From Escherichia phage vB_EcoP_phi296, in sequence record PV189400.1: DNA of 57,221 nucleotides. One strand, 5' to 3'. How positions within the stretch are numbered: the first letter of the stretch is position 1; every line of letters starts with the position of its first letter. A program made the position numbers. Of this stretch, positions 15,001 through 18,000 are shown piece by piece.

Positions 15001-18000
15001 GGGAATGGGGTCATATATTTATACATTCTGGGGGTGAGTTGTATGTATGGTTTAAGTATTACGAAACCAGATGGCAGTTTGTGGATCAGTCCGGGGTTTA
15101 CACCTCAATGCCTGATCAATAAAGGCACCATACCGGCGACTGAAAAGGCTTTTTTTAAAACATCAATTCCATCTGATAAAAGTTGTTTTTTCTTTATCAG
15201 AACAGAGAAGAAGGCTGATGTCATGTACACGCATGAACAGATAGATGGATATCATGCCCTGAGGCTTCATGTAATTGTCAAGGGAACGAACCCTGGTGTT
15301 ACGACGGTTTATGCTTTCGCTAATATGGTTACTCCACCTTCTGAGTATGGTATCGCCATGTATAACCCGGACGGTGAGATGATCTATCATGGCGAAATGA
15401 TGCTGCTTGACGCGAAGTTAATACCTGTTGATATCAAATTTGAAAAGGACCTTGGATATCCATGCGCAATCATGCCTGCACTGGTCGGGTATTATAACTG
15501 GAAAAGAACTCCTTATGACCGACCGATTTATACCACATCCACTGGCGCCACAGGAAATAAAATATATTCCTGTGAGCATTATTCCGGTGGTGCAACATGG
15601 GATATTCGAAAGCCGTATATAGATAAGGTCCTGGTTATTAATACATCAGTATATGATTAGTTGAAGCGAGTTTTTAATATTCATTTAAAATGTCTAAAAA
15701 GATGTATTATTAAAAAGTTTAGCGTGTTATCTGAATACAGGATATCTTAAATGAAGAGTATAGCAACACTGGTTGTGTGTGCAATCTCCGGGATTGCCTG
15801 TGTAAATTTATCTGCACATGCAGCAGAAGTAGAGCATACAATTTCTCTGGGGTATGCGCACTTTCAGTTTCCGGGACTGAAGGATTTTGTAAAGGATGCG
15901 ACTGCTCATAACAGGAAGACTTTCAGCCATTTCGTCAACAGAAACTACTTCTCTTCATTGGGCGAATATACAGATGGTCGGGTCAGTGGATATGAAGGCA
16001 AGGATAATAATCCACAGGGCATTAATATCAGGTATCGCTACGAGATAACGGATGATTTTGGCGTTATCACCTCTTTTACATGGACGCGTTCTCTCACTAA
16101 CTCACAGACATTTATTGATGTGCAGCCAGCCGAACATACCAGGAAGATTAAGAATCCGGCAGCTTCTGCCAGAACGGATATCAGAGCGAATTACTGGAGT
16201 CTGTTAGCGGGGCCTTCATGGCGGGTTAATCAGTACATGAGTTTATATGCGATGGCAGGGATGGGCGTAGCTAAAGTTACCGCTGACCTGAAAATTAAGG
16301 ATAATGTTAACAGTACTGGCGGATTTTCTGAAAGCAACAGCACGAAAAAAACTTCCCTGGCGTGGGCTGCAGGTGCACAGTTTAACCTGAATGAGAGTGT
16401 TACACTGGATGTGGCTTACGAAGGTTCCGGCTCTGGTGACTGGCGTACGAGTGGAGTTACTGCTGGCATTGGCCTGAAATTCTGACCTGTATCCGGTAAC
16501 CGTTTACTACCCGCTGTGATGGCGGGTTTTTTATTGCCCGTACAGGGCAAAAACCGTAAATTATGCGCGGGTGCCTTTCGGCTGATGGCTGGAGGGAGAA
16601 CCTGAAGGCCTGATGTGGAAAGGCCCCGAGTCAACTTTAATGTTAACCCGAGGCCCTAACACTTCGTACCTTAAGCAAGTAGAAGGTTAGCGCCTCTCTG
16701 TAAAAGGAGTCAAGCGCTATGCCGCAAAAAACGATCATAGTCAGCATTTTATGCATAACTATTTTGGTGATTGTCTGGATGATACACAACTCACACTGTG
16801 AGTTCAGGCTTAACATCATGTGGTCACAATTTGCGGCGTTCTTGCAGTGTAAACAGTAAGAAACCTCGACGGGGACGAAAGTCCCCGTCAACTGGTTGCT
16901 GAGGTTCAGCCGATATGGCACCCGTTTCTGGTGAGAGAATGGACGACAAAATTCTCCGGTATATGCAGCGTGTTGTGAGAAATTCCCGCAACCCTGAATT
17001 TATGAATGAAGTTAAAGACGCCTGCCTTAAAAAGCAGGCGTTTTGCTTTGAGGCACCGGATGGTTTTCTGGTGCTGCGTTCTGTGCTCAGTGACGACGGT
17101 ATCCCTTATGTTCTGGTGTTGCTGGGTGTGTGTACGGGGAGTGCCGGTGTTGAGCGTTATCTGCCGGAGGTGAAGACATTAACCAGTCTGGCTGGCGGAC
17201 GCTGGGCTGAATTCCACACGGCAAGGCGGGGATTTATCCGGCTGGGAAAACGTCTGGGCTTTGAGCGAATGCCGGATGATGAGGATGGCTTCATGGTGTT
17301 CAGGATAGCGGTCTGACTGCCACTGTATTCATCATCGTGTGTAAACCAACATTGCACTTCACATTCTGACCCTGCCCCGGCAGGGTTTTTTGTTATCTGA
17401 GGAGCCATAATGGGCGGAAAAAAAGGCGGTGGTGATACCAAAGTAAAACCAACAGCAGCGCAAATAGCACAGGAAGAGGTGGCCTGGAAAGGGTGGCAGG
17501 ATTACAAAAATATTCTCCGTCCGGCAGAAGATAACTTCATGGAAAAGGTCGATGACCTTAACAGTGAGCAGCAGTACGACAATATCGCCGGTACAACAAA
17601 TCTGGGATATCAGAAACAGTTTGGTGAAACGCGAAGGGAGCTTGCGGGTAATCTTGCTCAGTCCGGCGTTGACCCATCCAGTGGTCGTTTTAATGCGGTA
17701 ATGGATGCAAATCAAAGCGACCAGGTGACCGGGCAGATTGACACGACCACACGGGGGCAGGTATCGCAGGCAGATAAATATATTGCCGGGCTACAGGATG
17801 TTGCGGCTCTCGGTTCCGGTCAGAAGGCCGATGCGTTACAGAGTTTTAACTCTCTGGCAGACAGCAGTCTGGCAAAAGCCAAATCAGATGCACAGGCGGC
17901 GTTTACAAAACAACAGGGGCGGGCCTCTCTTGTTGGCGCTGGTCTGGGGGCGGTTGGGGCTTATGCAATGCATAAGGCTGGCGGTAGCGGAAGTGGAGGT

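Follow-up and report, generated by a model that had tools for sequence, protein, structure and literature searches.

The stretch of DNA analysed here, 57,221 nt of Escherichia phage vB_EcoP_phi296 (sequence record PV189400.1; hereafter the window), very probably carries a complete hok/sok-type type I toxin–antitoxin module, a self-contained cassette of ~390 bp located just past lom in 933W-like Shiga toxin (Stx) phages. This reading is based on the family membership of the encoded peptide, the architecture of its RNA, conservation and covariation within this RNA, and the absence of a mok leader reading frame. A hok/sok-like type I locus had been proposed at this place in an initial annotation, and the proposal is supported by a Pfam match above threshold, a match to the Rfam model RF01794 (E=1e-6, below its gathering score), pairing between the tac and fbi elements, and a candidate for the Sok antisense RNA. 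The locus is an already annotated and catalogued member of a known family; what goes beyond the existing annotation is its mok-less architecture, the swap of a toxin coding sequence within the RNA scaffold, and the lack of its own terminator in this phage.

The toxin gene is an open reading frame (ORF) at 16719-16859 (+) encoding 46 aa (MPQKTIIVSILCITILVIVWMIHNSHCEFRLNIMWSQFAAFLQCKQ), with the Shine–Dalgarno (SD) sequence AAGGAG at 16704-16709, 9 nt 5' of the hok ATG. It is held in a 429-bp gap between the stop codon of the upstream gene (16485), identified as lom by Pfam Ail_Lom (112.7 bits), and the next annotated ORF (16915). The Hok/Gef-like ORF with its good ribosome-binding site, and the gap of ~430 bp bounded by the lom terminator (hairpin 16509-16527), were both described in the initial annotation and are borne out. 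The Pfam check of the peptide which it called for was positive: PF01848 (HOK_GEF) gives 24.9 bits against a gathering score of 22 (E=1.6e-5), with residues 9-44 lying on profile positions 7-42 of 42. PHROG 251 (“MokW-like host killing”) matches with E=6e-20. The size and layout are those of the Hok/Gef family (~50 aa, an N-terminal hydrophobic helix and a polar C-terminal part), since the peptide has one hydrophobic stretch consistent with a transmembrane helix, IIVSILCITILVIVWMI, followed by the polar HNSHCEFRLNIMWSQFAAFLQCKQ.

The peptide is alignable end to end with HokA, HokW, and Hok; its tblastn identity is 42.6% to K-12 HokA, ~24% to HokW (over 42 aligned residues), and ~30% to R1 Hok. 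It belongs to a 46-aa Hok subfamily represented by clusters 72 and 82 of the 2026 preprint by Escalera-Maurer et al. (bioRxiv 10.1101/2025.08.07.668861), in which 1264 Hok peptides are catalogued and which by design analysed the coding sequence only, and not Sok, mok, or mRNA structure. Seven residues occur in more than 80% of Hok peptides (M1, C16, T18, L30, C31, E32, and E41), and five of them are kept in the window allele as M1, C12, T14, C27, and E28. In every complete copy of the locus the ORF is unbroken at 45-46 codons, and the ratio of non-synonymous to synonymous divergence (dN/dS) of the hok coding sequence is 0.23-0.51.

The second line of evidence is the RNA. RF01794 is matched at 16569-16730 (+) over model positions 1-157, that is, over the full model, with 37.5 bits. 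This model, named “sok”, is built in the hok sense, beginning with the mRNA 5' end and running as far as the hok ATG (the 933W hokW leader, L005 1503-1677), and the match therefore marks the hok leader, not the Sok-encoding strand. As a control, the genuine hokW leader reaches 113.5 bits, likewise in the hok-sense orientation, and relatives from the 46-aa subfamily reach 44-48 bits. The window match thus has the expected orientation, and the 46-aa subfamily as a whole represents a divergent branch. Upstream of the leader, a -10 hexamer of the form TA.A(T/G)T is kept in all contexts of the cassette, and its distance to GGGTGC is as in hokW (TAGAAT, 6 nt, GGGTGC).

The predicted full-length transcript (16569-16930, 362 nt) folds with -148.7 kcal/mol (z = -8.4 versus shuffles). 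The long-range fbi/tac pairing, which the initial annotation had proposed to look for by folding, was found: tac (16569-75) pairs with fbi (16917-23) in the minimum-energy fold at every transcript end tried, and likewise in 21 of 21 relatives. Besides, 16668-80 is paired with 16894-905 in the full-length fold, and such pairing between the target and the 3' untranslated region (UTR) occurs in the minimum-energy folds of 15 of the 21 relatives; it was judged by per-sequence folds, the column-wise covariation count being dropped for this poorly aligning stretch. Both long-range pairings are retained when the transcript is extended to 17050 or begun at the lom stop. When the RNA is truncated at 16893, its 5' end is re-paired with 16621-27 and the hairpin 16650-16696 forms with an unpaired loop at 16670-78. 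Truncation from the 3' end is thus predicted to switch the fold and expose the Sok target, and a stable hairpin lies past the stop codon.

This hairpin had been described as a perfect 9-bp stem with a GAAA tetraloop at about 16868-16891; its exact limits are 16868-16889. Its suggested identity as the folded 3' end of a hok-type mRNA agrees with the comparative data, as it is a conserved and covarying 3' hairpin: in the RNAalifold consensus of 21 distinct copies it forms helix 16, which is 100% paired and has compensatory changes in 4 of its 9 pairs. The consensus as a whole comprises 87 pairs, with standard pairs in 98.5% of cells and compensatory changes in 13 pairs, while controls with the partners slid by 1-3 columns gave 0-3 compensatory pairs. 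Compensatory changes are also found within the coding sequence, and the start codon region pairs with the segment coding for FAAF.

The antisense partner was absent from the initial annotation, where it was only deduced from the usual construction of such loci. We placed a candidate at ~16677 to 16619 (-) by its position relative to the annotated sokW (L005 1553-1623, minus strand) via the shared Rfam model. The complement of its putative -10 element, AGGTTAGCGCCTC, is invariant in 25 relatives, and TAACCT is also the -10 of sokW, where it is destroyed by primer YO-421 in the promoter-less (“pro-less”) construct (PMC8621323). The antisense span 16678 to 16612 folds into a ~15-nt single-stranded 5' tail and a 16-bp stem (z = -5.8), the stem being kept across the relatives with compensatory changes. 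The tail of the candidate has its complement in the loop that becomes unpaired on truncation of the mRNA. The target stretch (16656-16680) is hypervariable: it is the most variable leader part among the relatives and differs between tandem copies, as would be expected of a specificity determinant.

Several points weigh against reading the locus as a complete module. The hok and Sok promoters are both weak matches and neither was reported by the promoter scan, which at a threshold of 9/12 consensus positions reported no sigma-70 site at the module (the hok promoter went unreported because it matches 8/12); both promoters are therefore placed by homology only. From the Rfam check of hok and sok models proposed initially, the match itself stands at E=1e-6, but its 37.5 bits lie under the gathering score of 59. 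Similarly, the NCBIfam HokA and Hok-subfamily models match the peptide well under their cutoffs; the best of them, HokA (NF007290), gives 37.9 bits and does not reach its equivalog cutoff of 89 bits. Two of the best-conserved residues are replaced in the window allele, L30 by H26 and E41 by Q37 (logo numbering for L30 and E41); among sister alleles, the first of these positions is L or P and the second is E. One and the same alignment served to derive the consensus structure and to count the pairs, so the contrast with the slid controls is inflated somewhat. The tac and fbi elements are invariant, so their pairing displays conservation but no covariation. Finally, the Sok transcript, the transcript ends, and the toxicity of this exact allele are predictions.

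Such points could be taken to mean that the locus is a decayed, non-functional hok relic carried passively with the phage, like K-12 hokA, which is interrupted by IS150 and whose mok and sok are pseudogenes. The replacement of two of the seven best-conserved residues by H and Q, the lack of mok, which is needed for translation in R1, and the lack of an own terminator would all fit a relic. However, none of the elements is damaged, and all are conserved across 197 phage records; the ORF stays open throughout, with dN/dS below 1, and compensatory changes maintain the RNA helices, including those in the coding sequence. The toxicity test set of the above preprint included the 933W allele of the lom-adjacent locus (72_1589), a P2-prophage allele (72_1621), and an MPQK-type allele (82_1289), none of which is among the 3 non-toxic constructs of 45 tested (bioRxiv 10.1101/2025.08.07.668861); a peptide identical to that of the window did not turn up in the text of its supplement. 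The alanine changes L30A and E41A leave R1 Hok toxic. Decay is thus a very improbable explanation, and we return to the complete module.

The most distinctive feature of this module is the lack of mok. No mok leader ORF was found when all frames were checked in 25 copies, and there is no conserved start. The window has stops in all three frames 18-47 nt 5' of the hok ATG with no ATG, GTG, or TTG between, and most of the 25 relatives are also without these codons after the upstream stops. In R1, hok is translated only if mok is read as far as the hok SD, so hok translation may be inefficient in a copy lacking mok, which is a further argument against a working module. It also follows that Sok cannot act here by blocking mok translation. 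Folding predictions suggest a direct way instead. The energy needed to open the hok ribosome site (16699-16732) in the window is 20.8 kcal/mol in the full-length RNA, 14.1 in the truncated RNA, and 18.9 with 16619-16677 occupied; the means for the 21 relatives are 17.0, 10.8, and 15.7 kcal/mol (the last for truncated RNA plus Sok), with the same order in 21/21. When 20-nt segments were blocked in turn, the largest rise (~+6 to +7 kcal/mol) was obtained for 16639-16688, the target hairpin. Against a specific effect of Sok, an increase of +3 to +4 kcal/mol is also obtained when certain other parts of the leader are blocked, and direct Sok control of the hok ribosome site is a purely thermodynamic prediction.

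Another possibility is that a leader ORF with a non-canonical start in the Sok-target hairpin plays the role of mok and that Sok blocks this ORF and not the hok ribosome site. GAGG at 16650-53 corresponds to the mok SD of hokW, R1 genetics requires leader translation as far as the hok SD, and the prediction of mok is acknowledged to be hard. Nevertheless, the window leader is without ATG, GTG, or TTG, no frame stays open past 16690, which leaves at least 14 nt up to the hok SD, and no candidate near-cognate codon is kept among the relatives, so we regard such a hidden leader peptide as improbable. We instead propose, as plausible but tentative, a combined scheme in which the 46-aa subfamily is mok-less, Sok acts directly via an anti-anti-SD switch (GCGCCUCU being freed to lock the SD), toxin cassettes are recombined within an RNA scaffold, and in Stx phages the module acts jointly with hokW-sokW at induction.

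The module may operate as follows. The plus strand would give a stable mRNA beginning near 16569, in the full-length form of which tac is paired with fbi (16917-23), the 3' UTR holds the Sok-target loop, and a hairpin encloses the hok ribosome site, so that this mRNA would be neither translated nor bound by the antisense RNA. Gradual shortening from the 3' end, as far as the hairpin at 16889, would allow the 5' end to refold, exposing the target loop (16670-78) and loosening the ribosome site. While it is being made, the short-lived Sok (~16677 to 16619, minus strand) would pair with the target loop; once its supply stops, Hok would be translated and the inner membrane damaged. Presumably, Sok takes the 5' arm of the target hairpin, by which GCGCCUCU is freed and the SD re-sequestered; RNase III cleavage is possibly also involved. 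The coordinates of all elements are collected in Table 1.

Table 1. Elements of the lom-adjacent hok/sok-type module and its borders in the window
Element	Position	Strand	Details
lom terminator	16509..16533	+	Hairpin 16509-16527 followed by T-run; left module boundary; terminator scan
Putative hok promoter	16534..16562	+	-35 TTGCCC 16534-39, 17-nt spacer, -10 TAAATT 16557-62, 6 nt to +1 G16569
tac element GGGUGCC	16569..16575	+	5' end of hok mRNA; aligned to RF01794 model position 1
ucb-like tac partner in 3'-truncated mRNA	16621..16627	+	Pairs with tac 16569-76 in the fold of 16569-16893
Sok-target hairpin GAGGC...GCCUC	16650..16696	+	Loop 16670-16678 exposed in truncated mRNA
SD-sequestering hairpin (AGCGC-CUCU ... 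GGAG-UCAA-GCGCU)	16689..16718	+	RNAalifold helices 8 and 9, 100% paired, 21 sequences
hok-family toxin ORF	16719..16859	+	Pfam PF01848 above gathering score; PHROG 251; intact in complete copies
3' hairpin, 9 bp, GAAA loop	16868..16889	+	GACGGGGAC-GAAA-GTCCCCGTC; presumed 3' end of processed active mRNA
3'-UTR partner of Sok-target loop	16894..16905	+	Pairing in full-length mRNA fold
fbi element GGCACCC	16917..16923	+	Right end of conserved module; overlaps annotated ATG 16915 of next ORF
Predicted Sok promoter	16684..16714	-	-35 TTGACT 16714 to 16709, 19-nt spacer 16708 to 16690, -10 TAACCT 16689 to 16684
Predicted Sok-like antisense RNA, ~59 nt	~16677 to 16619	-	~15-nt single-stranded 5' tail, long stem-loop, short U tail
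Sole downstream terminator-like hairpin	17018..17050	+	Hairpin 17018-17041, in ORF 16915-17316; ACGCCTGC...GCAGGCGT then TTTTGCTTTG; terminator scan

In its general plan the module resembles hok/sok/mok of R1, with which it has in common a small toxin of the membrane-acting Hok type, a cis-encoded antisense RNA directed at the leader (predicted in the window), the tac-fbi fold-back, the 3' hairpin, and the predicted switch from the full-length to the truncated form; R1 has mok, whereas the window locus has neither mok nor a terminator past fbi. K-12 hokA has in common with the window peptide the MPQK start and the AAFL.CK end, but it is 50 aa long and has an annotated mokA. The nearest well-described system in the same phage group is hokW-sokW of 933W and of Sakai prophage 5 (Sp5, Stx2), which shares with the window locus the family, the GGGTGC 5' end of the leader, the Rfam model, and the Sok -10 TAACCT. 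It differs in having an in-frame mokW leader ORF, a toxin of 51 aa, and the much higher Rfam score reported above.

We rejected the identity of the window locus with hokW-sokW, since the start sequence of hokW has no match in the window at ≤3 mismatches, the ORF at 16719 is the only match when HokW, HokA, and Hok are searched against the window by tblastn, and its identity to HokW is low; this is therefore a different locus from hokW, and it is a paralogue of hokW-sokW. In 933W (AF125520) both are present, hokW at 58460-58734 and the lom-adjacent hok at 45422-45862, 13 kb apart. 933W and Sp5 (VT2-Sakai records) carry both loci, and the window carries only the lom-adjacent one.

Conserved copies of the ORF together with its flanking RNA occur in 197 phage records and in 1750 of 5426 complete E. 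coli genomes. The cassette is found in several settings: past lom in 933W-like phages; past ogr at the ends of P2-like prophages, sometimes in tandem; and between J and the tail-fibre gene of a lambda-like prophage. Copies from the P2-like (ogr end) and lambda-like (between J and stf) settings have 64-96% identity in the coding sequence and 77-93% in the leader, the order from promoter to fbi being the same, and homology between the contexts stops just past fbi. These prophage copies possess their own terminator ~25 nt past fbi, whereas the window copy has none and abuts the next gene. Among 933W-like phages no empty site (the downstream ORF with no hok) is indicated, as the ORF occurs in 185 records and the module in 197, so ORF-bearing records are not in surplus (totals compared, not record by record). 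Tandem pairs of hok modules were observed at some prophage ends (L035 1521-2355, P2-like; L020 4318-5397; L025 5545-6360), with near-identical or related coding sequences and with differing Sok-target stretches and 3' UTRs.

Compared with the 933W allele, the window copy is 98% identical in the leader and 96% in the 3' UTR but just 67% in the coding sequence. The latter is 95-96.5% identical to MPQK-type alleles, the leaders and 3' UTRs of which are only 86-93% and 74-77% identical to those of the window. The coding divergence between the window and 933W types amounts to a synonymous divergence (dS) of ~1.2 with dN/dS of 0.27. Local hypermutation or diversifying selection as the cause of this divergence island was rejected on these values, and because the coding sequence matches alleles from other settings of the cassette and the flanks match those of 933W; the same data indicate an old allele brought in by recombination. 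The exchange is bounded on one side by the conserved SD-ATG block and on the other by the conserved FAAFLQCK block. The recombinant type occurs in about 8 of the 197 phage records. As a separate observation, the window has two more sharp divergence islands versus 933W in surroundings of 95-100% identity, at 19113-19232 and 13900-14400, one in the ORF starting at 18785 and one in the tail-fibre gene.

The 3' end of the primary transcript deserves a separate comment. The terminator scan found none directly past fbi in this phage, at the place where P2-like prophage copies have theirs, and the hairpin at 17018-17050 is a possible 3' end of the primary hok transcript here. The scan also flagged the hok 3' hairpin as terminator-like on the minus strand (16866-16891, then GGTTTCTTAC). 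We set this reading aside as probably incidental, because the conserved context is the plus-strand hok 3' UTR and no minus-strand gene is annotated nearby. The annotated start of the next ORF (ATG 16915) falls within the fbi element; since the PHROG 610 profile starts at residue 9, that is, at ATG 16939, the ORF as annotated probably begins eight codons too early. Elsewhere in the window, Rfam matches at gathering level (50415-50620, 46105-46300, 38305-38363, 50062-50308, and 32532-32621) comprise STnc100, isrK, C4 antisense with a1b1 target, lambda cIII thermoregulator, three tRNAs, and sRNA-Xcc1.

As to the role of the module, hok function has been studied experimentally just once in this phage group, and the result points to a contribution to lysis after induction: Sp5 hokW-sokW advances growth arrest, its deletion halves the phage yield, and sokW RNA vanishes on induction (PMC8621323). 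By analogy, the window locus may serve lysis and phage release after induction, with late antiterminated transcription from the tail-fibre/lom side running against the Sok promoter, lowering Sok and timing Hok late. The locus lies in the late gene block, between lom and the plus-strand genes that follow, and points in the same direction as the late genes, which its Sok promoter faces, so that late read-through could lower Sok, although this is speculation. However, the tac-fbi closed fold is also predicted in read-through transcripts, which would stay inert, and hokW sits elsewhere in a different orientation context; a lysis role is therefore possible but doubtful.

The initial annotation had proposed a role in prophage addiction or in abortive infection and exclusion of other phages. 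R1 hok/sok does stabilise its plasmid by post-segregational killing and reduces T4 plating (a modest exclusion), hok genes are ~fourfold enriched in prophages, and the same cassette is found at moron positions in P2-like and lambda-like prophages. Nevertheless, PADLOC has no model matching the locus, and the chromosomal hok loci tested earlier gave no post-segregational killing, so we consider addiction or exclusion rather unlikely as the role of this module.

As for public records, the window is 100% identical to Escherichia phage vB_EcoP_phi419 (PV189407.1), a 933W-like short-tailed Stx phage of the genus Traversvirus, over the 441 bases compared, with the same coordinates. The description of the locus as unannotated, with which we started, does not hold for public records: the hok ORF is named “MokW-like host killing” in PV189407.1, and the identical RefSeq protein WP_001135718.1 is named “Hok/Gef family protein”. 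Faridani et al. (2006) counted 13 hok genes in O157:H7. A literature search for hok described next to lom in Stx phages gave nothing specific. A search of 5.8 billion proteins returned just 17 close matches, all from E. coli and all named Hok/Gef, and so did not widen the comparison.

As a discovery, the locus adds little, since prophage hok genes are common and this one is annotated and catalogued. Its meaning for the biology of the family lies elsewhere. The conserved mok-less hok module offers a natural case for testing whether coupling to a leader peptide can be dispensed with in a textbook antisense system. The sharp exchange of the toxin coding sequence between otherwise ~98% identical regulatory RNAs illustrates how the specificities of toxin and antitoxin can come to be reshuffled independently. 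In the Stx phages, the Sp5 hokW-sokW deletion still holds a second hok module, which the published study did not take into account, and its twofold effect on phage release may therefore be masked by the paralogue; if the tentative scheme of mok-less direct control and joint action is true, the published hokW-sokW deletion phenotypes would be underestimates.

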